DNA from: a virus | Reading direction: 5' to 3' (one strand) | Virus record (IMG/VR): IMGVR_UViG_3300027736_000020 | Location: 96,001 to 160,000 of that record | DNA length: 64,000 nt | Part shown: positions 30,218-59,374 of the stretch, in pieces | How positions within the stretch are numbered: the stretch's first letter is position 1 | How the letters are laid out: each line of letters begins with the position of its first letter | Notes under the pieces: model-generated | What the model was told of the DNA's origin: nothing | The model's input: only the letters and a program-made list of their open reading frames with translations | Databases searched by the model: none | Position numbers and translations under genes: made by a program

Positions 30218-33200
30218 ATGGACACAAGATTATCAAAGGCAAGAACAACAAGAAAACCTGCTCCTGCTAATGGCAAAAAAGACAGCACTAACAAAGCGGA
30301 TAAATCCAATGACAAGGTAACTACTCAGCCTTCTTTTATTCCTCCAATAACTTCTTCGGGAGAAAATACTGGGACAACAAGAGGACCGAATAACGACCCA
30401 GTGAATAACGCCATTCGCGCAGGACAGTCAAGTTTTTCCAATGGATCTTCTGTGTTCGCTGGTGGAATCCCTTTGGGAGATATTTTATCATTGCCGGGAA
30501 TTTTTTTAGCAGATACAGTCAGAAGAATGGTTGTTGGGAACAGATCAAAAAATCCCAAAGAAGTTGAAGTTCCTAAAACTGAAGTTGTTGGACCTGAAGC
30601 TCCTAAAACTGAAGTTCCTAAAGTTCGTGAAGCAGAAGCAGTAGCAAGACCACGAGGACCAACAGGAATTTCAGAACAACCTGTTGGAAAACCTCCTGCA
30701 AATTTGAGCCGTTACGAAGGAACATATGCCAGAGAATTGAATGAATTGGATTCAACAGTTAATCGAGGATATGTAGTGAATCCCGAAACAGGCGCATTGA
30801 CACCTCGCGGATTAGCACCAGTGAGAGAACCAGTGAGAGAACCTGTAAAACCCTCTAGTAAGCCTGCAGCTGCAAGTAAACCCTCTGGTAAGCCTGCTAA
30901 CTCCGCTAGTGCAAAAATGGAAGGTTTTTCCGGCGCTGGAGGAAAGGCCATAAGCGCTTTAATGGCATACGACATGGTTAATGCAATTACTGATATTAGT
31001 TGGAATACCATTCAAGATGCTTTAAACAATAAAACACCGGGAGACAGGTTAAATTGGGAGAGAAATAATATTGCCGCAAATGCTATTGATCTTGCAACAG
31101 GATTTGCTCGCGACACAATGGAAAACGGAGATCTGACACCGGGTCGTGAATCACGATATAGACAAGCGAGAATAGATCTGGCACAAAAGCAGAAACCTGT
31201 TATGGATGAAATTTCCAATCTTGCGGATATATACGAAAAGAGAGAAAGAGATCTTAGCTCTCCTACGTACAGGCAAGCTTTGGCTCTTGGCGGATACTTG
31301 AAAATTGACAAAGACGGAAAACCCATTCCTTTGGAATCCTATGTCAATTCGGAAAATAATAAAAATCCCATGGATCAACATTCACGGCAACAGGATTTGG
31401 CTGAAACTCCCGGAAATCATTTCATTGGCCCTGTTCCTTCGCCTTCAGAAATAAATCAAATGATTAGAGACGGAAAAATAACTGGAAATACTAAAGCTCC
31501 CGTTCGTCTTGTTCCCACAGAAGATGATCCCAATTTTCCCGGTTTTTGGGACAATATTCTGGCTGGAGATGTTCCCAAAGCGTTAAATGCAGCAATGGCT
31601 CCATGGTCTAGGGTTGGAAATGAGCTTGGAAAACCAGAAGTAACGAACGAAGGAAAAATAGTTCCAACAAACAGATCCGGTAGTACTCTTGCAATTGTTC
31701 CTAGGGATGTAGAAGATAAAAATAGTTTTCGTGGACTAATACCATTCATGAATAATATTACCGCAAAAAGAGATAAGAGAATCAAGCAAAATACATATTA
31801 TGATGGAATGAATTTAGGAGGAGATGCAGTAAAGGAAATGCTTCCCGGTGGACCTCAGGCTATTTCTCCTGTAGAGGCAAATACATTAAATTATATAGAA
31901 AGATTAAAAAGAAAAAATAAAATTGTTCCTAATTTGCCTGCAAGAGAAGGAATAGATGATTCATACGACTATCCTGATGATTTAAATCCAAATGAAGGGC
32001 TTTCTTCGGATTTAACGCGATCTATTTCTTCCAATGCAATGGCAAATTCATTGCTAAAATCGTATTCCAAAAAAAAAATATTAAAAAAAGCTTTGGTAAG
32101 CAGCCAATACAAAAAACCTTCAACGAATGAAGAACCAATTACCACAATAAAAGATCCTCCTAAATACAAAGCACAACCAGTGACTGAGCAGAGTCCTGCA
32201 GGCACGCCAATGCCTGACTACATCATTCCCAAGGGAAAAGGAAAAGCTTATAAAGACATTGTCAGCGGTGGTATCGAACCATATCCAAGAGAAACAATTG
32301 CAAGCGCGACGACACCGCGCACTCTAGAAGAAATACAAAGTGATCCAGTCCGAATTACTGTCACAAGAGGACCGGATGTAGGCGCACAAAAATTACCTCC
32401 TTCATCTCTTCCAAGCGTGCAACAACTTGCCGATTCACTATTTATTGGGTCTGGTGCTGCGCCAAAGGCAACAATTGGAAAATTTCCCAAAAGCCACTTT
32501 GATTATACTCCCGGAGGCAAAAAAACTATATGGAATCCTCAACAGTTAACAACACATCCTGATGCGTTTAATGGTAAAGAAAACATGGCTACGGACATGG
32601 AGGCACTTACAGGTACGGCGTATCCAATAGCAATTGATTCCCAAGGATCTCCATTGCTTGGGGATCATTTAGGTCATTCAGCAGATGCTCCTGCAGTTAT
32701 TCCTCATGGATTTTTTTCTAAAACAGCTGACGGTCAACTGGAAAGACTGCCTGATCAAGCATCATGGTATGAACTTCCAAAATCCACATTGCTTTATAAA
32801 AAAGGCGCAGGGAAACAAGAAGTTCTTGATCCTCAATCTGGAGATCCGGTAACACATTTAAGGTATTTGGGAGCTGTTACAAGAAAAGAAACAAGAGCAA
32901 GGACAGGTGCAGATTTTGCTGAATTTCCTGGAGCAGTGATAGATGATGCTAATTTTCGTGTTCCAGTTACTGGAATTCAGACAAAACACGTTGAAGGTTC
33001 TTTGTCTTGGCTGTTTACCAATATTTTTCCAATTCCATTATCCGGTGCTAGGCCAATATGGGTAGAGCAATCCATTGATGACATCATTGCTACGCACATA
33101 AGAAAATTTGGAATTGATAAAGCTCCTGATTTGAGCATAGAAGATATAGAAAAGCAAACTCTCAAAACCCCTGTTGATTCATTTCGGGCAGGAACAGGGC

Positions 33201-40833: not shown

Positions 40834-40909
40834 GCAAGGGTAGCTCAGTTGGTAGAGCTTCTGCCTTCCAAGCAGATTGTCGCGGGTTCGAGCCCCGTCC
40901 CTTGCTCCA
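40834..40909 (+). tRNA. tRNA-Gly(TCC)
   Basis: Acceptor GCAAGGG/CCCTTGC, anticodon loop CT-TCC-AA, TTCG T-loop, encoded CCA. Confidence 0.95.
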
Positions 40910-40910
40910 T

Positions 40911-40987
40911 GGCCTCGTAGCTCAGTGGACTAGAGCTCTCGCCTTCTAAGCGAGTGGTCGCAAGTTCGAATCTTGCCGGGGTCACCA
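40911..40987 (+). tRNA. tRNA-Arg(TCT)
   Basis: Cloverleaf; CTCGC-CTTCTAA-GCGAG anticodon arm; CCA. Confidence 0.95.
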
Positions 40988-41015
40988 TTTTGGAAACGTC
41001 AAAGGAGGACAAAGA

Positions 41016-41093
41016 ATGCTGACTGGCGGATTTATGGTATTGTTATGTTTGTCGGTTTTTTTCCTTTGGTGGCTCGCCGCCGGGAAAAAATAA
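41016..41093 (+). CDS. 25 aa hydrophobic micropeptide
   Basis: AAAGGAGG upstream; MLTGGFMVLLCLSVFFLWWLAAGKK. Confidence 0.6.
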   Translation: MLTGGFMVLLCLSVFFLWWLAAGKK

Positions 41094-41097
41094 GTAG

Positions 41098-41169
41098 TCC
41101 CTGATAGCTCAACGGTGGAGCGCTCGGCTGTTAACCGATAGGTTCGAGGTTCGAATCCTCGTCAGGGAG
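41098..41169 (+). tRNA. tRNA-Asn(GTT), no encoded CCA
   Basis: TCCCTGA/TCAGGGA acceptor, CT-GTT-AA loop, TTCGAAT T-loop. Confidence 0.92.
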
Positions 41170-41181
41170 CTAGGAGGAATC

Positions 41182-41268
41182 ATGTTGTTTTTCTTGTTGT
41201 TTTATGTTCTTCTGATGTACATATTGTTGACAGCTTGGCTTTTCAGGTCTGCAAGAGGAAAATATTGA
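41182..41268 (+). CDS. 28 aa hydrophobic micropeptide
   Basis: AGGAGG upstream; MLFFLLFYVLLMYILLTAWLFRSARGKY. Confidence 0.6.
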   Translation: MLFFLLFYVLLMYILLTAWLFRSARGKY

Positions 41269-41570
41269 AAATCTACGTTGCAAAATTCTGGGCGCAAAAA
41301 CACAATGATCGTCGTTGGACTGACTGCGGATATCATTACTCGTTGACGCCTTGGTCGTATGACACAAACATTGATGAGATGCAAGAAGGGTGGATGATTG
41401 AACCCTTCCATTCGATTGATGTAGAGGAGAATGAAGTTGGAAACTATCACATCGAAGAAAGTAATGTTTCCGGAGAAGAAACCATCATCAAGTCCGGTCG
41501 AGATCTCATTCTCCGGCTTGAGCAGCGACGTATTCAATCACATTATTCAGAACAGGTACGAAATTTTTGA
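41265..41570 (+). CDS. Hypothetical protein
   Basis: Probable TTG start overlapping the upstream stop; frame of ORF-track 41235..41570. Confidence 0.5.
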   Translation: MKIYVAKFWAQKHNDRRWTDCGYHYSLTPWSYDTNIDEMQEGWMIEPFHSIDVEENEVGNYHIEESNVSGEETIIKSGRDLILRLEQRRIQSHYSEQVRNF

Positions 41571-41714
41571 GAAATTCTTTTATGAGCATAGACTTGCGCG
41601 ATTCGAACGAATTGACTGGACGTATGCAGTAAAGGAAAAAATACTTGTGTTGAGGTTGTTTGAAGAAGTGCCCGGTGGCCTTACAACTGAAGCCCAAGAC
41701 GTATAATTGAATAT

Positions 41715-41790
41715 GCCGCTGTAGCTCAGGGGTTAGAGTAGCTGTTTTGTAAACAGCGGGTCGTGGGTTCGAATCCCACTGGCGGCTCCA
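41715..41790 (+). tRNA. tRNA-Thr(TGT)
   Basis: GCCGCTG/TGGCGGC acceptor, GCTGT-TTTGTAA-ACAGC, CCA. Confidence 0.95.
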
Positions 41791-41955
41791 TGAAAATAAA
41801 AGGATGCTAAAAGGTGTTTGTAACAATGGTGTATGAATCATGGACAGGATCGTGGTACATGTGGAGCAATGATGTCCCGCGGATGCGCATGGATATCAAT
41901 GAGGATCCGGATTTATTTCACATGGATATTACTGGAATCAAGAAGGTTTCCTGTC

Positions 41956-42084
41956 ATGAGTGAAGAGCTACAGTATTTGCAATTTGGAATTACTTTACTG
42001 AACACATTCATGTTAATGTCAGTATTTTACATGCTATACACCATAGGTATGAACAACAGGAGGGGACCAAGAAATGGACACTGA
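41956..42084 (+). CDS. 42 aa single-TM micropeptide
   Basis: MSEELQYLQFGITLLNTFMLMSVFYMLYTIGMNNRRGPRNGH; AGAAGG upstream. Confidence 0.5.
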   Translation: MSEELQYLQFGITLLNTFMLMSVFYMLYTIGMNNRRGPRNGH

Positions 42085-42703
42085 TCGGGAAATTGGTTTG
42101 CGATTCATGCTGTTGGGCAGCGCAGGATCGGGCAAAGACACCATGGCTAACCTGTTGATCAGGAAAATTGGCAATTGTCACATTCTTTCGTTTGCAGCTC
42201 CTGTCAAGCGCATGACAGGCAAGATGATTCGTTATATTTCCGATGATGAAAATCTTGGGCTTGTGCAAAAAATGGAGCAAATGACAGATGTGCAATACAG
42301 GGAATTCATGCGTCATTTCTGGCAGTGGTTTGGAACGGAAGTTGGCCGCAAAACCATTGGAGAGGATTTCTGGATCAACAAACTCAGGGATTCCATCGAA
42401 GATATTGAGACGGCGTATCCACCAACTGATGGCATGATTCCTGCATTTGTTGTTACCGATTGCAGATTTGCCAATGAGCATCAATGGGGAATTGACAACG
42501 GATTTGTTATCGTGAGAATTTCCGGAGACTGGAGACAGTCAGGAGGCATTCCCAATCATTCAAGTGAAATTTCTCACATTACGCTTAAAGAGCATCTTTA
42601 TTTCTCAAACAACGGTACAATAAAGGAAATGGAAAACTGGATTGATGAAGTTCTTGTTCCGTTTGCTCGTGAGTACAAAATAGTAAGGAAAAAAGATGCA
42701 TGA
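42074..42703 (+). CDS. Deoxynucleoside monophosphate kinase (T4 gp1-like)
   Basis: P-loop 'GSAGSGKDT', 'SFAAPVK', 'QWFGTEVGR', 'DFWI', 'VTDCRFANE'. Confidence 0.85.
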   Translation: MDTDREIGLRFMLLGSAGSGKDTMANLLIRKIGNCHILSFAAPVKRMTGKMIRYISDDENLGLVQKMEQMTDVQYREFMRHFWQWFGTEVGRKTIGEDFWINKLRDSIEDIETAYPPTDGMIPAFVVTDCRFANEHQWGIDNGFVIVRISGDWRQSGGIPNHSSEISHITLKEHLYFSNNGTIKEMENWIDEVLVPFAREYKIVRKKDA

Positions 42704-42782
42704 TGATCAAGTTTCCGCCATATTCGGTGCAACAAGACTGCTTGTCTTCGCCCTGTCGCTCATCCTGCTAAGATTCTGGTGA
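42696..42782 (+). CDS. 28 aa hydrophobic micropeptide
   Basis: MHDDQVSAIFGATRLLVFALSLILLRFW; AAGGA upstream; overlaps the kinase stop. Confidence 0.45.
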   Translation: MHDDQVSAIFGATRLLVFALSLILLRFW

Positions 42783-42795
42783 AAGGATTACGAAA

Positions 42796-43014
42796 ATGAA
42801 TCAGGTTGTTGCTCCTCCTCCAGTCAAGCTTCCGGACATTGCCATCCCAGATTTGTACGACGACGATCCGTTGATTCCAACAGAAGAGGACGAGGAGTTG
42901 TTTGACTGGGATGAGGTTCTCAAGGGAATCCAATCAGATTTGGATGATGAGGAACCACAGGAAGTAGGTGCCGGGAGCGGGACTCGAACCCGCACGGGGA
43001 ATATCCCCTCCTGA
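42796..43014 (+). CDS. Acidic hypothetical protein whose 3' end is antisense to tRNA-Leu
   Basis: 72 aa, D/E-rich; the last ~15 codons overlap the minus-strand tRNA. Confidence 0.55.
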   Translation: MNQVVAPPPVKLPDIAIPDLYDDDPLIPTEEDEELFDWDEVLKGIQSDLDDEEPQEVGAGSGTRTRTGNIPS

Positions 43015-43052
43015 TTTTAAGTCAGGTATGTCTGCCATTTCATCATCCCGGC
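42969..43052 (-). tRNA. tRNA-Leu(TAA)
   Basis: GCCGGGA/TCCCGGC acceptor, CCTGA-CTTAAAA-TCAGG, long variable arm GGGGATATTCCCC. Confidence 0.93.
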
Positions 43053-43056
43053 TGGG

Positions 43057-43128
43057 CTGGGGCACTAGGATTCGAACCTAGGAATGCCGGATTCAAAGTC
43101 CGGAGCCTTACCACTTGGCGACACCCCA
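43057..43128 (-). tRNA. tRNA-Gln(TTG)
   Basis: TGGGGTG/TGCCCCA acceptor, CCGGA-CTTTGAA-TCCGG, TTCGAAT T-loop. Confidence 0.93.
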
Positions 43129-43139
43129 TCGCTCACCAT

Positions 43140-43167
43140 ATGATACAGTATTCCTAGGAAAGGTCAA
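43140..43167 (-). promoter_or_regulatory. Sigma70-like promoter TTGACC-N16-TATCAT for the inverted tRNA pair
   Basis: -10 ends 11 nt before the 5' end of tRNA-Gln. Confidence 0.6.
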
Positions 43168-43169
43168 TC

Positions 43170-43274
43170 ATGAGCGAAGAACAGAAGAAATTGAGTCCCG
43201 GAGTTCCGTACCCCAAGCCCGAGAAAAAGGTCAAGAAGAACAAGGGCTTCAAGGGCAGCAAGGAAGGCAAGTAG
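43170..43274 (+). CDS. 34 aa basic micropeptide
   Basis: MSEEQKKLSPGVPYPKPEKKVKKNKGFKGSKEGK; AGGAAAGG upstream; stop abuts the next ATG. Confidence 0.55.
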   Translation: MSEEQKKLSPGVPYPKPEKKVKKNKGFKGSKEGK

Positions 43275-43574
43275 ATGTATCTCAATGAGAATCTTCGAAA
43301 ATTTTTTCATGGAGAAAAGGGAGCCATTGCGAACAAGATTCGCAATGAGCATCAGACAAAGGCAATCATCGTCCTTCCCATCAAGCCGCAGAAACGCATT
43401 CATTTCTTCCTGAAGACCAAGCGTGTCCTCGCTCAGCCCAAGTATGCGTTGCGTTTTCACAAGAACATGTCTTCCGAAGCTCGCGAGGTCGTTCTGAAGT
43501 ACCTCAAGAAGTGGCGTTCAAAAGGAAGCGTTGAAACTTTCTCGACAATCGGGAATATCCTGAGAACATTTTAA
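43275..43574 (+). CDS. Hypothetical basic protein
   Basis: 99 aa ORF in operon. Confidence 0.65.
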   Translation: MYLNENLRKFFHGEKGAIANKIRNEHQTKAIIVLPIKPQKRIHFFLKTKRVLAQPKYALRFHKNMSSEAREVVLKYLKKWRSKGSVETFSTIGNILRTF

Positions 43575-43575
43575 C

Positions 43576-43998
43576 ATGAAAAGCTACATTGACTTGTATG
43601 AATCTATTCATGAAGATGGTCATCTTGTCGGTGTAGCAAGAAACGAAGAGTTTTCAACGGGAACATTTTACCCTCAGTTGTACAAGCATATCGAAAAGCT
43701 TGGAGAGGAACGTTCTTTCACGTTTGAGTCATTCGGATACCTTGTCTACGATTTTCCCGGATACAGCATCTTGGATCATCGTAAGGCAGGGCTTCCGGGT
43801 GAGTACGTTTCTCGCCCTGATAGGGATCCAAGTATGCTTCCGTTGGAATGGAGGCATTTGGCTGTTGCCAATCCCATGTTTTCCCACCGTGATCACTATT
43901 CTGGATTCATTCATCCCTCAGATAAATTGTTCATAAAAATATTGGAAAATCCACAATCTGCTGAAGGACATTATTTCATTTTTGGAGAAACCAGATAA
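43576..43998 (+). CDS. Hypothetical protein
   Basis: 140 aa ORF in operon. Confidence 0.65.
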   Translation: MKSYIDLYESIHEDGHLVGVARNEEFSTGTFYPQLYKHIEKLGEERSFTFESFGYLVYDFPGYSILDHRKAGLPGEYVSRPDRDPSMLPLEWRHLAVANPMFSHRDHYSGFIHPSDKLFIKILENPQSAEGHYFIFGETR

Positions 43999-44025
43999 TT
44001 CTGGTACAGTAGATTCGTTCAGCAA

Positions 44026-44097
44026 GGTCCTGTGGCGCAATGGTAGCGCAAGAGACTTTTAATCTTTTGGTTGTGGGTTCGACTCCCACTGGGACCA
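44026..44097 (+). tRNA. tRNA-Lys(TTT)
   Basis: GGTCCTG/TGGGACC acceptor, AGAGA-CTTTTAA-TCTTT; followed by CCG, not CCA. Confidence 0.92.
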
Positions 44098-44112
44098 CCG
44101 TAAGGATATGTC

Positions 44113-44364
44113 ATGATCGAGTTTTCCATCAAAAAGGTTGCATATAAACATAAGAAAAATACCAAAGCGGAAACAACGGTGTTGGCTTTGGACTTGACGG
44201 AAAAAGAGGTCGAGAAAATATTGGAAACGGTGGTTCCCGGAAATTCCAAAGAACTTAGGGAATCATTATTTGCTGCCATTTCCGAATCAATCTTTTCGCG
44301 TGCAGAAAAAGCCATTGGCGAAGAGATTGCCAATGGAGAAATCTGGATGCGTATTCGTGCCTGA
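44113..44364 (+). CDS. Hypothetical protein
   Basis: 83 aa, AAGGA upstream. Confidence 0.6.
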   Translation: MIEFSIKKVAYKHKKNTKAETTVLALDLTEKEVEKILETVVPGNSKELRESLFAAISESIFSRAEKAIGEEIANGEIWMRIRA

Positions 44365-44770
44365 CAAGGTTACGTGGAGAATTGGCGGATTAAGATCCGC
44401 ATCTGTTGGTTCTGCTTGGATTTCTTCAGAAGGACGAACAGGATTTTATCGTGGCAACCGCAAAATTGAAGAACCCAATCCTTTGAGCAAGGCATTCAGG
44501 CAATATTTTGCAGAAGGATTGAACGCTAAAGTTGATGCCGTTCCGGGTTCTTTTGACAATCATGATGATTTGATTGATCAGATAATTCAGCAATCTGACG
44601 CCATGACAGAAAATTGTCTGGTAACTTTTTTTGTTCCCGCAGAATTTTGGTGTCCCGTTCACTGGTTCTTGCTCGACTGCAGACATCGACTGACTCCTCG
44701 CGAATCATGGCTCGTGGAGTCCAATGTCGATGCGCTTCGTCCGTCTGGTATGATCTTGACGGATGACTGA
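44333..44770 (+). CDS. Hypothetical protein
   Basis: Frame of ORF-track 44270..44770; start uncertain (ATG 44333 or a GTG downstream). Confidence 0.55.
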   Translation: MEKSGCVFVPDKVTWRIGGLRSASVGSAWISSEGRTGFYRGNRKIEEPNPLSKAFRQYFAEGLNAKVDAVPGSFDNHDDLIDQIIQQSDAMTENCLVTFFVPAEFWCPVHWFLLDCRHRLTPRESWLVESNVDALRPSGMILTDD

Positions 44771-44778
44771 ATTCACGG

Positions 44779-44853
44779 CGGCCCGTAGCTCAGTGGTTAG
44801 AGCACGATCTTATAAATACGAGGTCATGGGTCCAATTCCCATCGGGCCTACCA
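44779..44853 (+). tRNA. Atypical tRNA-Ile(TAT), possibly degenerate
   Basis: D-arm GCTC/GAGC, loop CT-TAT-AA, CCA. C1:U72 mismatch, bulged anticodon stem (CGAT/ATACG) and T-loop TCCAATT. Confidence 0.65.
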
Positions 44854-44872
44854 TTCAGCAAAAAGGAATATT

Positions 44873-45151
44873 TTGATGCCAGCGATCAAAATTGAGAATA
44901 TCATTTGGAGTGTCAACACAGAAGTCAGCGAAGAAGAGTATGCTACTTTCCCATTGGAGGCAATTGTTGACATACACGAGAGTTATTATCTTCAAGAACC
45001 TATTGAGTCAATTATTCACAATGTCCTTGAAAGTTACACTAATATTCCAGCAAAAAGTTTTGATTTCAGTGTGGTCATGAGAAATGGTCCGGTACTAAAG
45101 TATTTCAAGAATCGTGAAAATACGCTGGCATTTTCCGGGCCGCTTTGGTAA
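44873..45151 (+). CDS. Hypothetical protein
   Basis: 92 aa, AAGGA upstream, TTG start. Confidence 0.6.
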   Translation: MMPAIKIENIIWSVNTEVSEEEYATFPLEAIVDIHESYYLQEPIESIIHNVLESYTNIPAKSFDFSVVMRNGPVLKYFKNRENTLAFSGPLW

Positions 45152-45159
45152 TAGTTTGC

Positions 45160-45232
45160 GGACCCATAGCTCAGCGGTTAGAGCATCTCTCTCATAAAGA
45201 GCAGGCCGCAGGTTCAAATCCTGCTGGGTCTA
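45160..45232 (+). tRNA. tRNA with CAT anticodon (Ile2-like or elongator Met)
   Basis: GGACCCA/TGGGTCT acceptor, CT-CAT-AA loop; lacks the initiator GGG/CCC anticodon stem. Confidence 0.88.
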
Positions 45233-45243
45233 CCCAATCACCC

Positions 45244-49900: not shown

Positions 49901-50195
49901 TCTTTGGCTTTATGTCCTGCTTCCTCCATGGCACAGGTCTTTTGGCCTTTGACTTGCTTTGAGGGAGCAAGATATATTTTATGATGTCAGCTCTTCGCAT
50001 GTACAATATTTTTTTTGATTGTCCGCCAATATGCTTGGCGTAAATCTTCCCATACATTGCAGCATCACGCAAGGCAGTTCTGCTTACTCCATACCGTTTT
50101 TGCGCATCATACAGAGTCAGGATATCCTGATAAGTTTCTCCATCCTGTAATGCAACGTTTTTTGCCATGTCTTCATATGTAAAAAATTTTTCCAT
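49860..50195 (-). CDS. Excisionase-like (HTH_17/MerR-type) DNA-binding protein
   Basis: 'LTLYDAQKRYGVSRTALRDAAMYGKIYA...LYMRRADIIKY'; GGAG upstream of ATG 50195. Confidence 0.65.
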   Translation of the reverse strand: MEKFFTYEDMAKNVALQDGETYQDILTLYDAQKRYGVSRTALRDAAMYGKIYAKHIGGQSKKILYMRRADIIKYILLPQSKSKAKRPVPWRKQDIKPKIIASEHQRGEIEG

Positions 50196-50217
50196 TTTAT
50201 TCTCCAAGGAGCGGCAA

Positions 50218-50613
50218 ATGTCTCAGAATAATCATCAGTTGAGTGTCAGGGAATTCATGAGTGCGATGGGTCAGGCAACCCCCGATTCCTTTTCTCCTGA
50301 AAATTTTCCATATGAACTCCGTTCAAAACTTATTATTGAGGAAGCAAATGAGTTCAAGGATGCTTGTGAAAAAAAAGACCATGTTGAAATCATAGACGCA
50401 ATTTGCGATTTATTGTATGTAACATATGGTGCAGCGATTGCATTGGGAATAGATATTGATGTATTTTTTAATGAAGTGCATCGATCAAATATGTCGAAGC
50501 TTGATCCTGAAACAGGCATGCCTATTGTCAGGTCAGACGGCAAGATAATGAAATCATGGGCGTATTCACCTCCTGATCTTTCCACATTGCTTGATCATCT
50601 TTCCGCAAAATAA
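50218..50613 (+). CDS. MazG-like/PRA-PH all-alpha NTP pyrophosphatase
   Basis: 'LIIEEANEF', 'IIDAICDLLYVTYG', 'FNEVHRSNMSK', 'RSDGKIMK...YSPPDL'; AAGGAG upstream. Confidence 0.85.
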   Translation: MSQNNHQLSVREFMSAMGQATPDSFSPENFPYELRSKLIIEEANEFKDACEKKDHVEIIDAICDLLYVTYGAAIALGIDIDVFFNEVHRSNMSKLDPETGMPIVRSDGKIMKSWAYSPPDLSTLLDHLSAK

Positions 50614-53129
50614 TCTCCAGCTGGTGCGTACCAGAATCCACTTCTGAATCCATCTCTTGATTGCGAGTTCTGGTAAAAAACAACTGTTGATCGCGTGCCA
50701 TGCGGCGCACTTCTTGTGTAGAAGTTGCGTCCATCGGCTTGATTGTTTAATGTTTCTCTTTCTCTTTCCGAAACTTCTTTTATTTTTCCGCTTATTCCCT
50801 TGAGCTCCACGAAGACTCCTTCGGGTGTGGATACAAGTCTGGAAAAATTTTGACCTTCGCGGTTTGTAAATTGCTGCAATGCTTGTTTTGGCAACAAAAC
50901 CGTTGTTCCGTCTCCTGCCAATTGTGCCGTGCTATACAATTTGCTATGAATTGAATTTTTGTTTCGAAGATGCGTCTTGAGATCAACAAGATGATCTTCT
51001 GGAGTTTGCAAAGATATCTGCGGTGTAGTTTCTTGTGGTTGACTTTGCGTATCCTGTTGCATTTGCAAAATCAATTGATTGCGTAATTCCATCAGAAGTT
51101 TTCCCAGTACATTCTGCCCTGATTGCAATCCATCACGTCGACCTACGTTGCTTGCACCCCAGAAAATATCATTTCTCAACCCGGTTGATTCGACAATATC
51201 TGCGGTCCCTGTTGCAACAAGTTGTTCCCTGAATTCCTTGCTATATCTTGCTTTCATGGTAAGCACCCGACGCATGATATCTATCTTTTTTCCATGAAAT
51301 TCAGGATCAAATAATTCTGGATTTTTTCCTTGCAAATTTTTTACAAAATCTTTTACATCTTTTGATGTGGGATTTTCGCCCATTGTTTCTGTTCCGGGAA
51401 GTCCTTTTATTTTCCCTTCAATAATACGCACTCCGAGAGGAGTAATATTTCCGTTTTGGTCTTTTAGTAATTTTGCCGCCTGATAAATGGTTTCAACACT
51501 TTTTCCATACACAGTTGTTTCTTGTCGAGTTCCATCATTTTTTAAAGATGAAATTTTGAAGGGGATAGAAATATTACTGAAATTAGAAAATATTGGTTTC
51601 CATGTTTGACTGGTTGTTTGATATGTGCCATAGGTATGCACACCATTAACATCCATTCGATCAGTTGTATCAGGAAGACCAACGGGAATTTGTCCTCGAT
51701 CAAAGTCGATGATATGTGCCTCGTGAGGAGATCCACCAAAAGTATTAATGATATGTTTTCTTGTCTCTTCCCAGCCTCCTGTGTTGCCAACGCTTCCTGT
51801 ATTTCCAACGCTTCCTGTAACAGCTCCTCCTATTTCTCCGTTGAGTGCAGCAATGCGAGGCATGGCTACTTTCCATGGATTTCCATCAGGGCTTGGATTG
51901 TTATCAAGATATTCTTTCAGAGCCGTTATTGCTCCGTTTGTATCATCTCTTCTTGCTTGATCCCTCCAATCTCTTTTCACAAATAATGATGCAACAAGAG
52001 GGCCAACTGGAGTTCCGTCCTTTCCTATCGGTTGATGAACAAAGACACTTCCATGTGCCATGGATGCAGAGTTTCTCAAGTACTTTCCTACTGCAGACAA
52101 ATAATCCGTGTCCTTGTATTTATCGCGAAAATCCATGGCAATGCCTCTACCCATTACAGGAACGCCTGCGCCATTAAGAACAGTATTGCATGTATTCACG
52201 ATCATGTTATAGCCACCTGACTTTTGAAAATCAGGATTCGTGATGTCTCCCTTGATTCCTTCTTTGACTTCGGGAGAAGCAGCCGGAGCGCCCGGAACGG
52301 TTGCTGATATGAGTGGTTCCTCTTTTTGTGAATCCCAATGCGCAATTATTTGATTGAGTCTATCAAAAGATGGAATTTCTTTTTGAAACATTCCGCGAAG
52401 AGTATCCTTGTCTTTTGAAAGATCCAATCTTTGTCGTGCTGCAATTGCTCTCATTGGATGAAGAATGATATCTTCAAAATATTTTAATGGTTGATCAGCA
52501 TTGCCTGTTTCTTTTTGCAATTCACGTATGTGAAAAATATCCGGAATTGGAACTCCAAGTTTGTCAGAAAGCCCTTTTGCAATAATTCTTCTATGACAAA
52601 AATTATTTGGATTAGAAAAGTCTTCAAAGCATGCCATTCCCACTCTTTGTATTACTGAGTTTTCGTCTTTGACTGCATCAACAGCCGCTGATAATTTGTC
52701 GTGAACATTTTCCGGAGTGACATATGGACTAATATTTATCGCCATTTGCTTTCTTGCTGCACGAGATCCAAGAAGGTCCGATTCTTGTCCTTGTCTCGCT
52801 TCTCTCAAATGTTCAGCTCTAGGTGTTGAAGCGGCCCAAAAATCTCTTATTGGTCCTTCAGGAATCGTTGCGGGAGATGCAACAATATCAAACGCTTTAC
52901 GTTGTGACCATTTGCGAGCTGCAGTGCCAGTTCCAGCAGGATGCCCTAACGAAACAGGAAGCACAATCCGAGTTGGATCTGCGATTGCGGTTACATTTTC
53001 AGCATGATTTGTCGTGAAAAGCGTGACGCGATGACCTAAAGATGGAGAAGACTCTGAAGTATCAGGATTGAGAGACTCCACGGGTTCTTCTGATGCACCT
53101 TCTGATTTTTTGAACAAGAGATAAACCAT
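50595..53129 (-). CDS. Polyvalent DUF488-like + DarG-like macrodomain + NADAR fusion protein
   Basis: DUF488-like 'MACFE...FCHRRIIAKGL' (~52540-53035). Macro 'KGDIT...IVNTCNTV...VMGRGIAMDFRDKY' (~51700-52260). NADAR 'FSNF...VETIYQAAK...LVATGTADIVE...DIFWG...GQNVLGKLLMELR' (~51065-51600). Start MVYLLFKKS at 53129 (GGAG 9 nt upstream) or 53144. Confidence 0.88.
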   Translation of the reverse strand: MVYLLFKKSEGASEEPVESLNPDTSESSPSLGHRVTLFTTNHAENVTAIADPTRIVLPVSLGHPAGTGTAARKWSQRKAFDIVASPATIPEGPIRDFWAASTPRAEHLREARQGQESDLLGSRAARKQMAINISPYVTPENVHDKLSAAVDAVKDENSVIQRVGMACFEDFSNPNNFCHRRIIAKGLSDKLGVPIPDIFHIRELQKETGNADQPLKYFEDIILHPMRAIAARQRLDLSKDKDTLRGMFQKEIPSFDRLNQIIAHWDSQKEEPLISATVPGAPAASPEVKEGIKGDITNPDFQKSGGYNMIVNTCNTVLNGAGVPVMGRGIAMDFRDKYKDTDYLSAVGKYLRNSASMAHGSVFVHQPIGKDGTPVGPLVASLFVKRDWRDQARRDDTNGAITALKEYLDNNPSPDGNPWKVAMPRIAALNGEIGGAVTGSVGNTGSVGNTGGWEETRKHIINTFGGSPHEAHIIDFDRGQIPVGLPDTTDRMDVNGVHTYGTYQTTSQTWKPIFSNFSNISIPFKISSLKNDGTRQETTVYGKSVETIYQAAKLLKDQNGNITPLGVRIIEGKIKGLPGTETMGENPTSKDVKDFVKNLQGKNPELFDPEFHGKKIDIMRRVLTMKARYSKEFREQLVATGTADIVESTGLRNDIFWGASNVGRRDGLQSGQNVLGKLLMELRNQLILQMQQDTQSQPQETTPQISLQTPEDHLVDLKTHLRNKNSIHSKLYSTAQLAGDGTTVLLPKQALQQFTNREGQNFSRLVSTPEGVFVELKGISGKIKEVSERERETLNNQADGRNFYTRSAPHGTRSTVVFYQNSQSRDGFRSGFWYAPAGDYFAER

Positions 53130-53152
53130 TGTTTTTGTCTCCATTTTTGTTT

Positions 53153-53161
53153 ATTATATCA
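53153..53161 (-). promoter_or_regulatory. Extended -10 element TGATATAAT
   Basis: Consensus TGnTATAAT directly upstream of the Macro-NADAR gene. Confidence 0.6.
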
Positions 53162-53223: not shown

Positions 53224-55314
53224 ATGAAATTTTTTGAAAAAACCCCTTTTCCGTTCAAGATAAATAGTTTTCGCAAGGCAGAAGAAACACCATCTGAAGG
53301 TAATTTTGTCAATAGTGACGGCAATCCTGTTGAAAGAGCGGTTCGTCCATCTTTCGCAAATGGTGCAACAAAACCTTTTATCGGCAATGCGCAAGGTGAG
53401 CGTGTAAATAGGGTAAAAAATCCATCTTTTTCTGGACAATCTAGTCCTTTTTTTGTCAATCGAGAAGGAAGTGTTGTTCAAGCTGCAACACTTCCTTCTT
53501 ATACAAACACTGAAGGACAAACTGTTGACGCGCTAGCCAATCCTTTGTTTGTAAACAAAGAAGATGCCCCTGTTCCAAGAGCAAGGAATCCTGCTTTTCT
53601 ATCTGATGAAGAGATAGTGCATGCTTCGCCAAGAAATGTTTCAAATTTCTATTCTCCTTCTGTAACGGGAAAACAAGCAAAAACGAGCAGAGCAGTAGAC
53701 GAAATCCGAGCAGAAAGAGAACAAAACCCTCGTTCAGCGAATGAGGATGGCATAGCCGTTGATCCAATGATTGTCCCACTTTACGTAATAGACGAAAATG
53801 GAGACGTAACCACTGCGCTGAGGCGAGATTCTTTTGGTCCTTATTCATACATGCAACATAATGACAGTGATTACGTGGGAGCAGAGAGAAGATTAACTGG
53901 TGCACAAGGAAATTGGGGTGAGGAAGGTCTTGGTCCTGTAGCAGATGATTCTGAATTTGCATCACCTACGGCAACGCGGGCAGAAATGCTTGCAAGAATT
54001 CTTCGTGAAGAATACCTGAAGAGAGAATATCTAGCACAGCAGGGAGAGAAAATTGGAGGATTGCCTTTCAGTCCGCTTGCTACAAGTGCAAGATACTATG
54101 CTGGTAATTTTGATGCAAAAAATATGAATGCAAACAATTCTCAAGGACAATCTCCAAAAATGTGGGCATTCAGGGAAACGATGCAGCTTCCCGATAATCG
54201 TGAAGAACAAAAAGATTGGCGGCATATGACAACAGACTCGCCAACACCAAATTCTGGAAAACCTTATGATCTTGGAGAATCTTTTCGTAATTCTGCAGCT
54301 CAAGATATTGCAGACATGATTGAAGCTCATTTACGTGCCACTGGACAATGGCCAGAAAATAAACCAAGTATAGAAGTTAAAGCATTCAGGCAAGGTCCTT
54401 CTTCGAAAAATTTTCAAGCACAGAAAACAAAAAAAGCGGAAGAAGAAAAAGTAGATAAACTAAAAAATAGTTTTTCAAATATTGCAAATGAGGAAATAAT
54501 AAACCACATTCAATCATTCAGAGATTATGCAGTAAGATCAATGTGGGAAAATCCTGATCATTTACGAGATTATGAAGCAGCAGGGAAAATACTTCTTGAT
54601 CGATTGAACGAATCATTGAAAGATGATGATCGTTCTGAAATCTTTTTGGAAGATTTGGACACAGAAGGAATGGATGAAGAAGAGATTGCTACATGGCATG
54701 CAATGACAAATGCCACTAACGAGAGACTTGTGCATTATTTTTCTGGTCATTATCCAGATTTTGTTCACGATGCAGCTCTTTCTGAAATATCTTTTAGATT
54801 GCAACCAGAAGAAGATGAGCCACAAGCTCCGCAACCGCCAGCTCCGCAACCGCCAGCTCCGCAACCGCCAGCTCCGCAACCGCTAGCTCCGCAACCGCTA
54901 GCTCCGCAACCGCCAGCTCCGCAACCGCCAGCTCCGCAACCGCCAGCTCCGCAACCGCCAGCTCCGCAACCGCCAGCTCCGCAACCGCCAGCTCCGCAAC
55001 CGCTAGCTCCGCAACCGCCAGTCTCAACAAATTCATTTGAATCAATCATGCATAATTTTGGTCATGTCAAGGGAACGGGAACGAATCTTAGCGATCAAGA
55101 AATAAATTCATTGACTCCTGAACAGTTTGATATTTACTCTGAGGCTTTGATGAATGGATCATTGGATGCATGGCTGGAGACAAATACTCCGAAACCGTCG
55201 AATAATCAAACTGTATCGACACCAGAGATTAATAGATCCGCAGCTGTTGATCCAGATGTTGATCCAGATCCAGATGATGAATATTTACCTGTCGGTATTG
55301 ATGATTTTTTTTGA
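53224..55314 (+). CDS. 696 aa hypothetical protein with N-terminal degenerate repeats and APQPP tract
   Basis: Long ORF with GGAG; FRKA near the N-terminus; ends GIDDFF. Confidence 0.8.
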   Translation: MKFFEKTPFPFKINSFRKAEETPSEGNFVNSDGNPVERAVRPSFANGATKPFIGNAQGERVNRVKNPSFSGQSSPFFVNREGSVVQAATLPSYTNTEGQTVDALANPLFVNKEDAPVPRARNPAFLSDEEIVHASPRNVSNFYSPSVTGKQAKTSRAVDEIRAEREQNPRSANEDGIAVDPMIVPLYVIDENGDVTTALRRDSFGPYSYMQHNDSDYVGAERRLTGAQGNWGEEGLGPVADDSEFASPTATRAEMLARILREEYLKREYLAQQGEKIGGLPFSPLATSARYYAGNFDAKNMNANNSQGQSPKMWAFRETMQLPDNREEQKDWRHMTTDSPTPNSGKPYDLGESFRNSAAQDIADMIEAHLRATGQWPENKPSIEVKAFRQGPSSKNFQAQKTKKAEEEKVDKLKNSFSNIANEEIINHIQSFRDYAVRSMWENPDHLRDYEAAGKILLDRLNESLKDDDRSEIFLEDLDTEGMDEEEIATWHAMTNATNERLVHYFSGHYPDFVHDAALSEISFRLQPEEDEPQAPQPPAPQPPAPQPPAPQPLAPQPLAPQPPAPQPPAPQPPAPQPPAPQPPAPQPPAPQPLAPQPPVSTNSFESIMHNFGHVKGTGTNLSDQEINSLTPEQFDIYSEALMNGSLDAWLETNTPKPSNNQTVSTPEINRSAAVDPDVDPDPDDEYLPVGIDDFF
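54826..55020 (+). repeat. 13 x 15-bp tandem repeat (gctccgcaaccgc[c/t]a; APQP[P/L])
   Basis: Counted directly; GC-rich and nearly perfect. Confidence 0.95.
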
Positions 55315-55416: not shown

Positions 55417-57270
55417 ATGGTTCAGTTATTAATAAAGAAAACAAATCAACCGGAAAACCTTGAAAAATCAATTGGTGATTGGTTTAGAAGACTATTTGGT
55501 GGAACAAAAAGCGACAAAAAAACTGTCTTCAAAAAAACTTCGCCTGTATCACACATGTTTCCCGATTTATATTCCGAGCCAATTACTGAAAAACCTCTCT
55601 TATACAAAAAAAATGACCAAGGAATCATGGAGGCAACTCTTTCAAAACAAGAGCATGACGAATGGGAAAAACTTATTAAAAAAATAACTGACGGTTTTTT
55701 CCGCAGAAAAGTAAATGAACATTTCAAAGATAGTGAAAAATCAGACAAATGGATAAGACAATCTCTTGGCAACTTAACAGAGAGACAAGATGTAGCAAGA
55801 AGCAAAAAAATTATTCAAGATTTTCTTGAAAAGATAATTCCTGCGCATAAAGTGCAAATTCCTTCCAGCATTGAATCTTCCGAAGATTATCTGAAAAAAC
55901 TTTTTACTGAAGAACAGCAAAAAAGTATTTATGATATGATCCCTGATTTGCCGATGAAGGCAAAATTTCCTGAACTATTGCCAAATGACAAGGCAAACAC
56001 AACAGAACCATCAGTCGTAGCACAACCATCAGTTGTAGCAACAGCACCAGTCGTAGCACAACCATCAGTCGTAGCACAACCACCAGTTGTAGCAACAGCA
56101 CCAGTTGTAGCAACAGCACCAGTTGTAGCAACAGCACCAGTTGTAGCAACAGCACCAGTCGTAGCAACAGCACCAGTCGTAGCACAACCATCAGTCGTAG
56201 CACAACCACAACCAACTTCCGTCGGTGTTGGGCAATCACTGCCTTCTCCAATCCGTACTGCTCGCGTGCTTACCGTTTCAGAGCGCCGCGCTCTCAATCC
56301 TAATTATGATACCACTTTAGGTACTTCAATACATGATTTTATAAATAGATTTATAACAAGAGTCATTATTGATGCAGATGAATCAACTGGTGATTCTTTG
56401 CAAAAAAAATCATTTATACTAGAAAAACTCAGATCACTGGCTGCAACTGCAAAAGTTCAACCAAAAGGAATATTTAATTCAGGAATTCCAGCTGCTGATT
56501 TTGCTGTGGATTTCTGGAAATTGTGCAATTCAACGCAATTCAATGCCTTGAATATTGGAAAAACAAAAACAGACTTTCAAGCACACATTGAAGATTCTTT
56601 TTTGCGGAAAAAAAGACAAATAGAAATTGATTCTCCCTTGAATCAAAAATGGAGTGAAGGAGACATAACTGAAGTTTTGGCAGATGATAGGCAATCTGAA
56701 AAAATAACCAAACATCCACAAACAGGAAAAGATGAAGCCCTGATTGTGGATGTTTTTAGGCCCAGAATATTACAAAATGGAAAACAAATCATAGCACCAT
56801 TTGTTGCATTAGGAAAAATTCCTTCGCTTTCATCATCGATTGATCCTGTTCCTGATCAGGGAAACTCAGGAATTAGCAACGTAGAAGGAAAAAATAATCC
56901 TGCAAATTCTGCTAGTGTAACTGCTCCCACAGAGCCAACATCTGTGACTCCCACAAATCCTTTGCCATTTGAAATGACAATAAATGCCAATAAGTCTAAA
57001 GGAGAATTTAAAAAATTTGGTGAATCAATTGCGGATTATGCAACAATTTCAAGAATAAAAACAAATGGATCAAATCAAACGCATCAAATTTCCTATCAAC
57101 CAGAACATTACGATAAAATATTAGAAGAAATGCAAAAACACCCAACATTAAGCTCACAGGCAATACTATTCGAAAAACACGGAGTTGGTTCAGTTGAATC
57201 TCCTGAAGTCGTTCCTCCCCCTGAAATCAACCCTACGCCAGCAAAGGACGAAGCCGATGACGTTTTTTAA
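55417..57270 (+). CDS. 617 aa hypothetical protein with VVA(QPS/TAP) tract and possible GrpE-like beta domain
   Basis: Starts MVQLLIKK...LEKS; GrpE-like segment at ~56570-56820; ends EADDVF. Confidence 0.8.
   Translation: MVQLLIKKTNQPENLEKSIGDWFRRLFGGTKSDKKTVFKKTSPVSHMFPDLYSEPITEKPLLYKKNDQGIMEATLSKQEHDEWEKLIKKITDGFFRRKVNEHFKDSEKSDKWIRQSLGNLTERQDVARSKKIIQDFLEKIIPAHKVQIPSSIESSEDYLKKLFTEEQQKSIYDMIPDLPMKAKFPELLPNDKANTTEPSVVAQPSVVATAPVVAQPSVVAQPPVVATAPVVATAPVVATAPVVATAPVVATAPVVAQPSVVAQPQPTSVGVGQSLPSPIRTARVLTVSERRALNPNYDTTLGTSIHDFINRFITRVIIDADESTGDSLQKKSFILEKLRSLAATAKVQPKGIFNSGIPAADFAVDFWKLCNSTQFNALNIGKTKTDFQAHIEDSFLRKKRQIEIDSPLNQKWSEGDITEVLADDRQSEKITKHPQTGKDEALIVDVFRPRILQNGKQIIAPFVALGKIPSLSSSIDPVPDQGNSGISNVEGKNNPANSASVTAPTEPTSVTPTNPLPFEMTINANKSKGEFKKFGESIADYATISRIKTNGSNQTHQISYQPEHYDKILEEMQKHPTLSSQAILFEKHGVGSVESPEVVPPPEINPTPAKDEADDVF
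56014..56211 (+). repeat. 11 x 18-bp tandem repeat (VVAQPS/VVATAP)
   Basis: Two alternating unit variants counted directly. Confidence 0.9.
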
Positions 57271-57271
57271 A

Positions 57272-59374
57272 ATGCTCGTACTGAAAAAATCTTCAGAAGA
57301 GCCACCCATTGATCCATCATCTTCTCCTGAAGTGCATCCAATCGTCGATAAATTGAATCAGGCTCGTAGTGCTGCCGATGTGGTCAGAGTAATGGGGGAA
57401 TGGAGAAAAGATCCAGACGCAATGGAAAAAGTAGGTAATTTTGCAGAATTGGCACGGGCCCGCCAAAGGGCGCTAACTGGTGTTCAGCCATTTGTGCCCA
57501 CACCAAGACCTGCACCAAGACCTTCATCAAACCCTGCACCATCAAACCCTGCACCATCAAACCCTGCACCATCAAACCCTGCACCATCAAACCCTGCACC
57601 ATCAAACCCTGCAACACGCGCTGTTGACGACGATGGTCCACCAGATGATGATGATCTATGGGCTGGTTATGATAATTTGAGAAATGATCGTCCTGATACT
57701 CGCCTCGTTGCTCCATTTACACCAGAAGGTTTTACACCAGAAGGTGTCACAACTGAAAGACCGACTGAGCTGATAGCTGAATTCATTCCAGAATCAGATC
57801 AAAGAAGAAGACGCAGGGAACTTTCTCCTGCTGTACGCAGTCTTCTGATCAGGCCAGAGCACAGAGGCCCCAATGCTCTTTTCCCTATGATGTTGCTAGG
57901 GCCTCCTGTGCAACGAGTAGCCGCAACATTACCAGAAAATCAAGGTGTTGAAATTTCCGAAGAAAAACAAGCGCTTATTGACAAGATCATGGGTACACCA
58001 AAACCTCCACAGAACCAGAATGATTTGTCTCCCGAGCAACGTACAGCACAAAGAATAAATGCCATGATTAGGGCAGATTTTACACCAGCTGAACAAATGC
58101 AAGCACAGCAAAAACTTATTGATCTTGATGTTCCTAGAGATGATTTTGCAAAATTAAAGACAATGTCAATGGAAGATTTACAGCTTATGTCGGACATGAT
58201 TGATCATCATTCAGCAAAAATTGACACATTAAAAAAATTAAATATTGAAAACAGTGATTTGCTTGATAATGATCAATTGAAGCAATTGATCACTGAAAAA
58301 GGCAGGGCAGACCTTTTTGATCCAGATCCTTTGGATGAAATGTTCCAAGGAAAATCTGATTTGACAAGAGCCGCAATGATCAAGAATGAATTCATCAAAA
58401 AAGAGCTTAAAAGAATCAGTCATTACATAAGCAGCAGTAATAGAGAAAATATTTTTGGAACAGACGATCCCTCTGAATACACAAAATTTGTTAGGAAACT
58501 TCATGAAATTACACAACATTATCAACAAACTGATAATGTGAAAATTATCACTCAAGCGCTTAATTCAGGAATGCCTGTTGGATACTATGAATTAAATTTA
58601 TTCCGCGAACACAAAGGTCTTCCTCCGCTCACAAGAGAAGAAATTGATGCAGCGATGTCTGAAGAACGCAAAAAAGAATATGAATTGCCTTCTTTGCTTA
58701 CCACTGGTACAGCAGATCCTAAACAACGAGAAAAACTATTGCAACAATATGGATACTTTATTGATTTGATGAATAAAGATAAAACATATGATAAAGATGC
58801 TCGCGCAGCCAATTTGTACGGCATGCTTCTTATTCACAATATGATAAAAAGGCAAAATGCAAGAACTGCACCAGCAAGAACTGCACCAGCAAGAACTGCA
58901 CCAGCAAGAACTGCACCAGCAAGAACTGCACCAACAGGAATTGCACCAACAGGAATTGCACCAGAAGCAGACATTTGGATACCAGCGTTGGAAAAGACGA
59001 TCAAAGACCCTTCAATTTTAAGTTTTCCCAATCTTGCCGCAAAAATGCAAACAGCAATTGCTCACGCAAAAACAGGCGATATAAAATCAATGATGAGTGT
59101 ATATTTTGACGCAATCACATCTACTGAATTTCGTCTTGGAAATACGAATAAAATTCGTGAAAGAGTAGAAATAGAAATGAGAGGGGAAGACTCTACCCAG
59201 TTAAGAAATGAATTTCAGTCGTTTGAGACCCTTGTTCGTCTGTTTCTCAGGGATAAATTTAAAATGGAACTTTCTACACCAGAAGGAATTTGGTCACCAT
59301 CGCAAAAGGGAAAACCAATGAAATATGTATTGACCAGCACAGAAGACGGCAAAGAGCAACAGTTTGAAACCTAA
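57272..59374 (+). CDS. ~700 aa hypothetical protein with MLVLKKSS N-terminus and Pro-rich repeats
   Basis: Start moved to ATG 57272, 1 nt after the upstream stop; carries the shared tag. Confidence 0.8.
57526..57615 (+). repeat. 6 x 15-bp tandem repeat (atcaaaccctgcacc; SNPAP)
   Basis: Five perfect units plus one variant. Confidence 0.95.
58859..58963 (+). repeat. 5 x ARTAP plus 2 x TGIAP 15-bp tandem repeat
   Basis: gcaagaactgcacca x5, acaggaattgcacca x2. Confidence 0.95.

Follow-up and report, generated by a model that had tools for sequence, protein, structure and literature searches.

What could a virus do with a DUF488-like domain, a macrodomain and a NADAR domain joined in a single protein? 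This question is raised by an open reading frame (ORF) at positions 50595-53144 on the minus strand of a 64,000-nucleotide (nt) stretch of DNA from a large uncultured phage, here called the window, which comprises positions 96,001 to 160,000 of IMG/VR record IMGVR_UViG_3300027736_000020, a record of 184,088 bp that is 97% complete according to CheckV. The ORF, of 849 amino acids (aa) whose numbering is used throughout, had been singled out in an original prediction, made from the DNA letters, as a candidate eraser of two kinds of ADP-ribose (ADPr) mark. The ORF is real and is kept in syntenic phage contigs, and the predicted order of its domains is confirmed (DUF488-like at residues ~35-277, macrodomain at 292-492, NADAR at 518-691); however, the modules number four and not three, a C-terminal module at residues ~735-849 having been missed. 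Because all three domain assignments are right and the catalytic residues are kept, the view that the protein is an ADPr-processing enzyme is well supported by sequence and structure models. We suggest, with a probability of about 0.5, that it is a counter-defence enzyme that would remove ADPr put on nucleic acids by host ADP-ribosyltransferases (ARTs). From the N- to the C-terminus, the protein is made up as follows.

53103..53129, minus strand: tag MVYLLFKKS, common to five window ORFs, at which the homologs begin
53043..53102, minus strand: acidic, Ser-/Pro-rich linker, with similar low-complexity sequence following the tag in other tagged ORFs
52314..53042, minus strand: predicted divergent DUF488-N3a-like (rhodanese-phosphatase-type) domain, residues ~35-277
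51669..52271, minus strand: predicted DarG/TARG1-class macrodomain, residues 292-492
51072..51593, minus strand: NADAR domain (PF08719), Glu-type, residues 518-691
50598..50942, minus strand: C-terminal module, residues ~735-849, with the motif DG-T-TV...G-x-WY...DY

A Pfam profile check of the three domain assignments succeeds in part: NADAR is identified above threshold (55.6 bits against a cut-off of 35.1, E 9.6e-15), but neither the macrodomain nor the DUF488-like part has a Pfam match. Searched within its own genome, the NADAR domain scores 59.5 bits and is the sole NADAR present, and E. coli YbiA (2B3W) is its only sequence match in the PDB. The catalytic set of E551, K558, E652, D659 and W662 is complete and is invariant in family members as well as in unrelated phage NADARs. 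A Glu and a Lys are retained throughout the NADAR superfamily (E88 and K95 in the E. coli C7 NADAR), and the residue in the last strand sorts the subfamilies, being Glu in YbiA/NADAR, Asp in the DarT1-linked DarG1 and His in T4 gp30.3/AdfN (PMC11543638, PMC11125620). Since E652 occupies this last-strand position, the domain is a NADAR of the Glu (YbiA/NADAR) type. All four NADAR families hydrolyse guanine-linked ADPr (G-ADPr), the Glu types also cytosine-linked ADPr (C-ADPr), on DNA and RNA (PMC12945103), and T4 AdfN together with phage NADARs of several clades reverses DarTG1 (PMC11825919).

The likeness of the macrodomain to DarG and Poa1p, as originally proposed, is borne out by the modelled fold and by a retained Asn/Lys pair. 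At the level of sequence, the signal is weak though specific. The NCBIfam model antitoxin_DarG matches residues 313-416 (E 2.4e-5), scoring 23.8 bits where the cut-off is 250 and aligning over only positions 14-105 of its 338. A PHROG annotated as phosphatase also matches the domain (E 2.7e-6), and two DarG macrodomains are the sole macrodomain matches of the family profile among PDB sequences (E 0.035 and 0.23). Pfam Macro has no match to the ORF at E<=1, a word-index search with the macrodomain among proteins of 119-382 aa returned none, and phmmer of the macrodomain and of the N-terminal domain against PDB sequences gave nothing useful. In Foldseek, the AlphaFold model of residues 292-492 (pLDDT 69.5, pTM 0.71) retrieves the DarG proteins of M. 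tuberculosis (E 2e-8) and T. aquaticus (2e-7) on top, followed by TARG1, DarTG, Poa1p and ALC1. VIA-align ranks its matches similarly, with DarG at Z 15.7/15.5, TARG1 at 15.2, Poa1p at 14.5 and SCO6735 at 14.0; the alignment to DarG at Z 15.7 has a root-mean-square deviation of 2.5 Å over 147/152 residues.

The relevant active-site residues are N22/K80 in T. aquaticus (Taq) DarG2 and N23/K78 in AdfM of PhiKZ, whose N23A variant is inactive (PMC13309987). N320 and K390 of the viral protein align with N23 and K78 of PhiKZ-type gp104, with K390 in a K-x-x-W context, and both residues are invariant in the family. AdfM (PhiKZ gp104) is itself a DarG2-like macrodomain that counters DarTG2 and removes DarT2 marks from DNA (PMC13309987). 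We note that the second Gly-rich loop of the macrodomain holds a low-confidence, Gly/Ser-rich insertion at residues 433-456 (51777-51848, minus strand) with a tandem GSVGNT duplication, of which close homologs have a single copy.

The assignment of the N-terminal domain to DUF488 fails with both Pfam hidden Markov models (HMMs), but stands by profile-profile alignment, by fold and by an invariant C-x-E...CHRR motif. Neither PF04343 nor PF22751 matches the ORF, although matches up to E<=10 were admitted in the search of this one genome, and one homolog scores 12.5 bits (cut-off 27). Scanning IMG/VR with patterns of conserved peptides, however, turned up 17 phage proteins that stand alone, are 110-147 aa long and contain C[WF]E-x(3-5)-FCHRR; all 16 of those aligned match PF22751 (best E 1.8e-10), and hhalign relates the profile of the N-terminal domain to these 16 members at 98.0% (E 1.5e-13, 69 columns) and to Megabear gp65 at 92%. 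The two ESM-Atlas clusters nearest to the AlphaFold model of the domain (pLDDT 75, pTM 0.76) are mostly viral and annotated as PF22751 DUF488-N3a / PF04343, with a TM-score of 0.74 by target over 130/131 residues. Solved structures match weakly in VIA (Z 4-5.8), with C. difficile 3G5J (Z 5.8) and the RapZ C-terminal domain (Z 5.0) on top, and with cysteine phosphatases, including CDC14A, PTEN, DUSPs and baculovirus RNA 5'-phosphatase, among the further matches.

The C-x-E...CHRR motif lies at residues 172-186, and the putative active site comprises C172, E174, D175, C183, H184, R185 and R186, all of which are invariant, including in the distant relatives P0014 and P0017. In the model, these residues run from the last part of a strand through the loop behind it into the beginning of a helix, an arrangement like the P-loop of Cys-phosphatases. 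Based on the hhalign homology, the Atlas fold match and the invariant motif, we place the N-terminal domain in the active DUF488-N3 clade, as a divergent member of increased size. DUF488 was reportedly grouped by Burroughs and Aravind in 2023 with RapZ-C and DUF4326 in a rhodanese-phosphatase superfamily, for which activities on NAD-derived sugars and nucleic-acid ends are said to have been predicted; PF22751 DUF488-N3a is presumably part of this RapZ-C/DUF488/DUF4326 clade.

Exhaustive phmmer of the N-terminal domain against 1.84 billion representatives yielded eight proteins only, among which P0016, a repeat protein, is probably spurious, and no match emerged when the entire protein was compared by tblastn with 50,697 phage records. 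With the model of the N-terminal domain, Foldseek against the PDB had no match at E<=0.001 and BFVD returned weak rows only, including a DUF488 protein at E 0.09; an Atlas feature search with the domain had no usable match. One PF22751 match elsewhere in the genome (L005) is stop-ridden and was dismissed as chance.

For the fourth, C-terminal module, neither Pfam nor the Atlas nor a search beyond the family gave any outside homolog; relatives carry it in one or two copies, and it is seen in P0014 (BLASTP E 2e-5). In the syntenic phage contigs, the close relatives are always encoded between a MazG-like/SSB/PD-(D/E)XK block and a divergently oriented set of genes for large proteins and an SLT lysozyme. 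They retain the DUF488-like domain and vary all other modules: the macrodomain is missing in P0002-4, P0006 and P0008, a second NADAR is present in P0005 and P0007, and the distal NADAR is missing in P0007 and P0009. Among the remaining relatives, P0014 holds all four modules in the order macrodomain, C-terminal module, NADAR, DUF488-like domain, and P0015 carries NADAR and the DUF488-like domain inside a giant of 4058 aa. That the co-occurrence persists through permutation argues for the modules acting in one pathway.

The same partners recur as separate genes. Four of the six phage records that hold both a stand-alone DUF488-N3a gene and a stand-alone Glu-type NADAR gene have the former directly upstream of the latter on the same strand, in a replication-type setting with genes for an AAA ATPase and a topoisomerase II subunit. 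These pairs belong to uncultured T4-like phages, are regarded as translationally coupled and are located as follows.

L020, 3911-4782: pair with overlapping stop and start codons
L013, 3114-4001: pair with stop and start codons no more than ~10 nt apart
L009: pair of the same kind
L018, 3770-5253: pair with a gene for the peptidyl-tRNA hydrolase PTH2 between the two

A small DUF488-N3a protein is also encoded by Lak megaphages.

The removal of ADPr from nucleic acids is the function we favour because of the DarG/AdfM-type active site, the uniform action of NADARs on base-linked ADPr, the precedents of AdfN and AdfM, and the lack of an ART in the phage. Indeed, at E<=1 nothing in the 184-kb genome matches DarT (PF14487), and ART-PolyVal has no match there, so that the target is probably a mark made by the host. 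In this scheme, hydrolysis of thymine-linked ADPr (marks of the DarT2 type) would be the task of the macrodomain, and that of guanine-linked, perhaps also cytosine-linked, ADPr (marks of the DarT1 or pierisin type) the task of the NADAR domain. The DUF488-like domain would act within this pathway on an ADPr adduct or product that is phosphate-linked. By analogy, a dual anti-DarT eraser, as first proposed, is plausible; that both DarT2 and DarT1 marks would be removed in vivo we regard as doubtful. As no DarT is encoded in the genome and the DarG model covers the macrodomain part only, the fusion protein is not a toxin-antitoxin module.

Several points weigh against nucleic-acid marks as the target. 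The NADAR domain is, by its Glu type, neither of the DarG1 (Asp) nor of the AdfN (His) subtype, and E. coli NADARs of the YbiA type hydrolysed G-ADPr in vitro without rescuing DarT1 toxicity (PMC11125620). The macrodomain model is of moderate quality, at the pLDDT given above and with one good model in five, and it nearly ties with TARG1 and Poa1p, both within ~1 Z unit of DarG; TARG1 acts on protein-linked ADPr and Poa1p on ADPr-1''-phosphate. Removal of base-linked ADPr needs no phosphatase, and a DUF488-like partner would fit small-molecule or end-processing chemistry at least equally. Most phage Macro and NADAR domains have, moreover, been argued to target small ADPr derivatives (PMC9503650). 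What we observe is the domains, the order in which they stand, their complete catalytic residues, the way they are inherited together and shuffled, and the gene pair that recurs in other phages; which substrates are used, a part in counter-defence and virion delivery are what we infer.

How the enzyme would reach its target depends on how the N-terminal tag is read. The LLFKKS tag noted in the original prediction is present, and the pattern M-x(0-2)-[LIVFY][LIVF][LIVF]KK[ST] opens five window ORFs, at 53129 (-), 55417 (+), 57272 (+), 26829 (-) and 19110 (-), with no internal occurrence in the 20,650 aa of the long window ORFs and no match in 100 codon shuffles; a genome-wide scan adds a few further copies. 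Because the codons differ among the copies, the tag is taken to be a peptide signal, and a signal at the RNA (nucleotide) level is ruled out. A longer form, PFPF...[KQ]KS, opens the adjoining 696-aa ORF and ORFs of related contigs as well as P0014, whose called start overlaps the upstream gene and for which an internal Met at MKPFPF fits better. The tag thus remains N-terminal in P0014 although its domain order is permuted. The start of the gene in the window and a possible promoter are marked by two elements.

53139..53142, minus strand: GGAG Shine-Dalgarno sequence, 9 nt before a second ATG at 53129
53153-53161, minus strand: extended -10-like element TGATATAAT, upstream of both ATGs, at 8 nt from the first and 23 nt from the likely start

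Most relatives begin with MVY(L/I)(L/V)FKKS, and with the GGAG 9 nt before it the second ATG at 53129 is most likely the true start, so that the predicted product has 844 aa and opens with the tag. Shine-Dalgarno sites are used in this phage genome, and sites of the GGAG/AGGA type precede other genes too. Of the consensus extended -10 that had been claimed for the gene, the element itself is present, but its -35 is poor and TGNTATAAT occurs seven times in the 184-kb genome where ~12 are expected; the extended -10 motif alone is therefore not beyond chance and is no promoter evidence. A transcript initiating just past TGATATAAT would include the GGAG and the second ATG. The same TGATATAAT precedes a 359-aa ORF on the minus strand at genome position C1:166122 (~70122 in window coordinates, outside the window), whose leader MRKIDKNPFPFAIWPMQKKS nearly equals that of P0014 from another phage, MKPFPFAIWPNTLQKS.

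Virion delivery, as suggested by the tag and by nothing else, has roughly even odds. The chance is only slightly short of even that the protein is instead expressed early from its own promoter and acts in the cytoplasm, the tag serving localisation, turnover or assembly with other tagged proteins. Against delivery in the virion, the gene stands outside the head operon as a unit of its own; it is monocistronic and lies between the SSB/PD-(D/E)XK/MazG block, a replication block, and the divergent block of tagged proteins, with the sigma-70-like extended -10 upstream. Nor is there anything to tie the tag to processing, HMMs for HK97- and T4-type prohead proteases and capsid proteins having found nothing in the genome. 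A purely cytoplasmic role sits less well with the same tag on a 2566-aa UvrD giant and a 226-aa ORF, both in a long run of minus-strand genes among giants of polyvalent type, with the N-terminal position of the tag in the permuted P0014, and with the frequent inference that Macro and NADAR proteins of myoviruses are packaged (PMC9503650). The full scheme, in which the tag loads the enzyme into the capsid, the enzyme is ejected with the DNA and three erasers act on the incoming genome before phage gene expression, is quite unlikely. It would have the macrodomain act on thymine-linked ADPr, the NADAR domain on G-ADPr and C-ADPr, and the DUF488-N3a domain carry out an as yet undescribed Cys-dependent step on a phosphate-linked ADPr adduct; if true, this last step would be the first activity assigned to the DUF488-N3 clade.

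The tagged ORFs that are otherwise unrelated lie at 19129-26829 (-), 18430-19110 (-), 55417-57270 (+), 57272-59374 (+) and 53224-55314 (+). They begin with the hydrophobic-KK-S form or with the longer PFPF...[KR]K[SA] form, and a linker that is acidic or rich in Pro and Ser comes next. The 2566-aa ORF at 19129-26829 (-) has a UvrD helicase at its end, the 696-aa ORF at 53224-55314 (+) has ~18 copies of PAPQP/LAPQP, and the 617-aa ORF at 55417-57270 (+) has repeated (A/T)(Q/A)P(S/V)VV units; repeat-rich proteins occupy the same position in related phages (L002, 2556-4859). A single Pfam domain is recognisable in each of three giants of the phage, UvrD in that of 2566 aa, DprA in one of 2222 aa and HD in one of 1363 aa. 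The giants at 6692-10783 (-, 1363 aa), 11471-18139 (-, 2222 aa) and 30218-36025 (+, 1935 aa), in which Pfam finds HD, DprA and none, respectively, resemble the polyvalent-protein type. At its 3' end, the gene overlaps a convergent MazG-like (PRA-PH) ORF at 50167-50613 (+) by 19 nt (50595-50613), and an HNH/homing-endonuclease-like ORF (3140-3688, minus strand; PHROG 559, E 2e-14) lies among structural genes.

Turning from delivery to substrate, the enzyme could instead degrade small ADPr-derived immune signals or toxins, such as the cyclic ADPr (cADPR) isomers of TIR/Thoeris systems, ADPr-1''-phosphate or ADPr cyclic phosphate. Cleavage of N-glycosidic bonds would then fall to the NADAR domain, removal of groups on the distal ribose to the macrodomain, and removal of terminal phosphates to the DUF488-like domain. 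Breakdown of this kind has been proposed in general for phage fusions of Macro, NADAR and DUF4326 (Iyer et al. 2022, PMC9503650). A phosphatase-like partner with an operon link to NADAR suits a multi-step pathway for small molecules, and the near tie in structure with Poa1p, an ADPr-1''-phosphate phosphatase, speaks for this reading too. However, the macrodomain keeps the Asn and Lys pair of DarG and AdfM in its K-x-x-W context and finds its best matches in both sequence and fold in DarG, and all NADARs tested to date act on base-linked ADPr. We consider the small-molecule explanation rather unlikely, but as the main alternative it has to be taken seriously.

Still less probable is a role in RNA repair or end processing after host defences that target RNA, in which the protein would clear RNA of by-products linked through ADPr or phosphate, such as 2'-phosphate/Tpt1 products, RNA-linked ADPr or NAD caps. 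NADARs do remove G-ADPr and C-ADPr from RNA (PMC12945103), and Macro, 2H and NADAR have been linked to RNA repair of the KptA type (PMC9503650). The N-terminal domain resembles RNA 5'-phosphatase and DUSP folds, at low Z, and the interposed PTH2 gene of one phage and the presence of tRNA genes in the window point the same way. Yet no gene for an RNA ligase, KptA/Tpt1 or 2H adjoins the locus, the neighbours being SSB, a PD-(D/E)XK nuclease and a MazG-like protein. The eight tRNA genes (Gly, Arg, Asn, Thr, Leu, Gln, Lys, Met) occupy window positions 40834-45234, between the RNR gene and the replication block.

That the protein is an antidote to or regulator of an ART of the phage itself is highly improbable, for although toxin-antitoxin-like pairs of ART and eraser exist in phages (PMC9503650), the 184-kb genome has no DarT or ART-PolyVal match and Pfam finds only HD in the 1363-aa protein.

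Single-domain phage erasers of DNA ADP-ribosylation are a recent finding, AdfN having been demonstrated in 2025 and AdfM in 2026. If both hydrolase types are naturally united in one protein, this would suggest that there are phages which face more than one ADP-ribosylating defence at a time. The fusion and the recurrent DUF488-N3a/NADAR operon together provide a concrete context for the phage-enriched DUF488-N3a, and the shuffling of modules at one conserved locus marks an arms-race hot spot. If the tag turns out to direct proteins into the capsid, this one would exemplify a counter-defence enzyme that is made in advance and enters together with the genome.

With the DarG antitoxins, represented by the macrodomain of DarG2 and the NADAR of DarG1, the protein shares both hydrolase types, and DarG is the best structural match of its macrodomain; it differs in being a fusion without a DarT partner in the genome and without the DarT-binding C-terminal domain. 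AdfM has a macrodomain of the same class (27% identity by MAFFT, hhalign probability 88%), but is a stand-alone protein of 162 aa that is imported into the phage nucleus, whereas the macrodomain here is one module of an 844-aa fusion, bears loop insertions and is known from its sequence. AdfN (T4 gp30.3; PMC11825919, PMC11543638) is likewise phage-encoded, with a NADAR fold and a conserved Glu and Lys, but it stands alone and has His at the last-strand catalytic position where the present domain has Glu. DUF488-N3a (PF22751, 'Active DUF488-N3 subclade') and the N-terminal domain have in common the segment C-[WF]-E-x(3-5)-FCHRR...LG-x-x-VP-E/D, the fold and a viral distribution. The N-terminal domain is, however, about twice as large, at ~240 aa where the others have 110-147 aa; its Cys loop is longer (C-x10-CHRR), both Pfam HMMs miss it, and it is fused rather than stand-alone.

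In T4, a capsid-targeting sequence is borne by Alt and the internal proteins, with a motif that ends in Leu/Ile-x-Glu. The tag resembles this sequence, and the polyvalent proteins (PMC9503650), in being a short common N-terminal peptide on unrelated, partly giant, enzyme-bearing proteins, but its hydrophobic-KK-S motif is a different one, and it is known here from sequence alone.

The closest design is that of viral proteins described computationally in 2022, which include tandem NADAR and Macro proteins and fusions that join DUF4326 with SLOG, Macro and NADAR (Iyer et al., PMC9503650). The original claim of an undescribed architecture was accordingly too strong; DUF488 receives no mention in that study. 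Both there and here, several ADPr-processing domains and a domain of rhodanese-phosphatase type are combined in one viral protein, and for the earlier fusions early deployment or packaging in myoviruses was inferred (PMC9503650). The phosphatase-like module is of the DUF488-N3a type here and of its sister clade DUF4326 there, and a shared N-terminal tag and an additional C-terminal module set the present protein apart. Its parts are thus known, and the combination of macrodomain, NADAR and DUF488-type domain is rare; what is new is the HMM-missed DUF488-N3a partner, the four modules shuffled and permuted at one locus, the operon link between DUF488-N3a and NADAR, and the shared tag.

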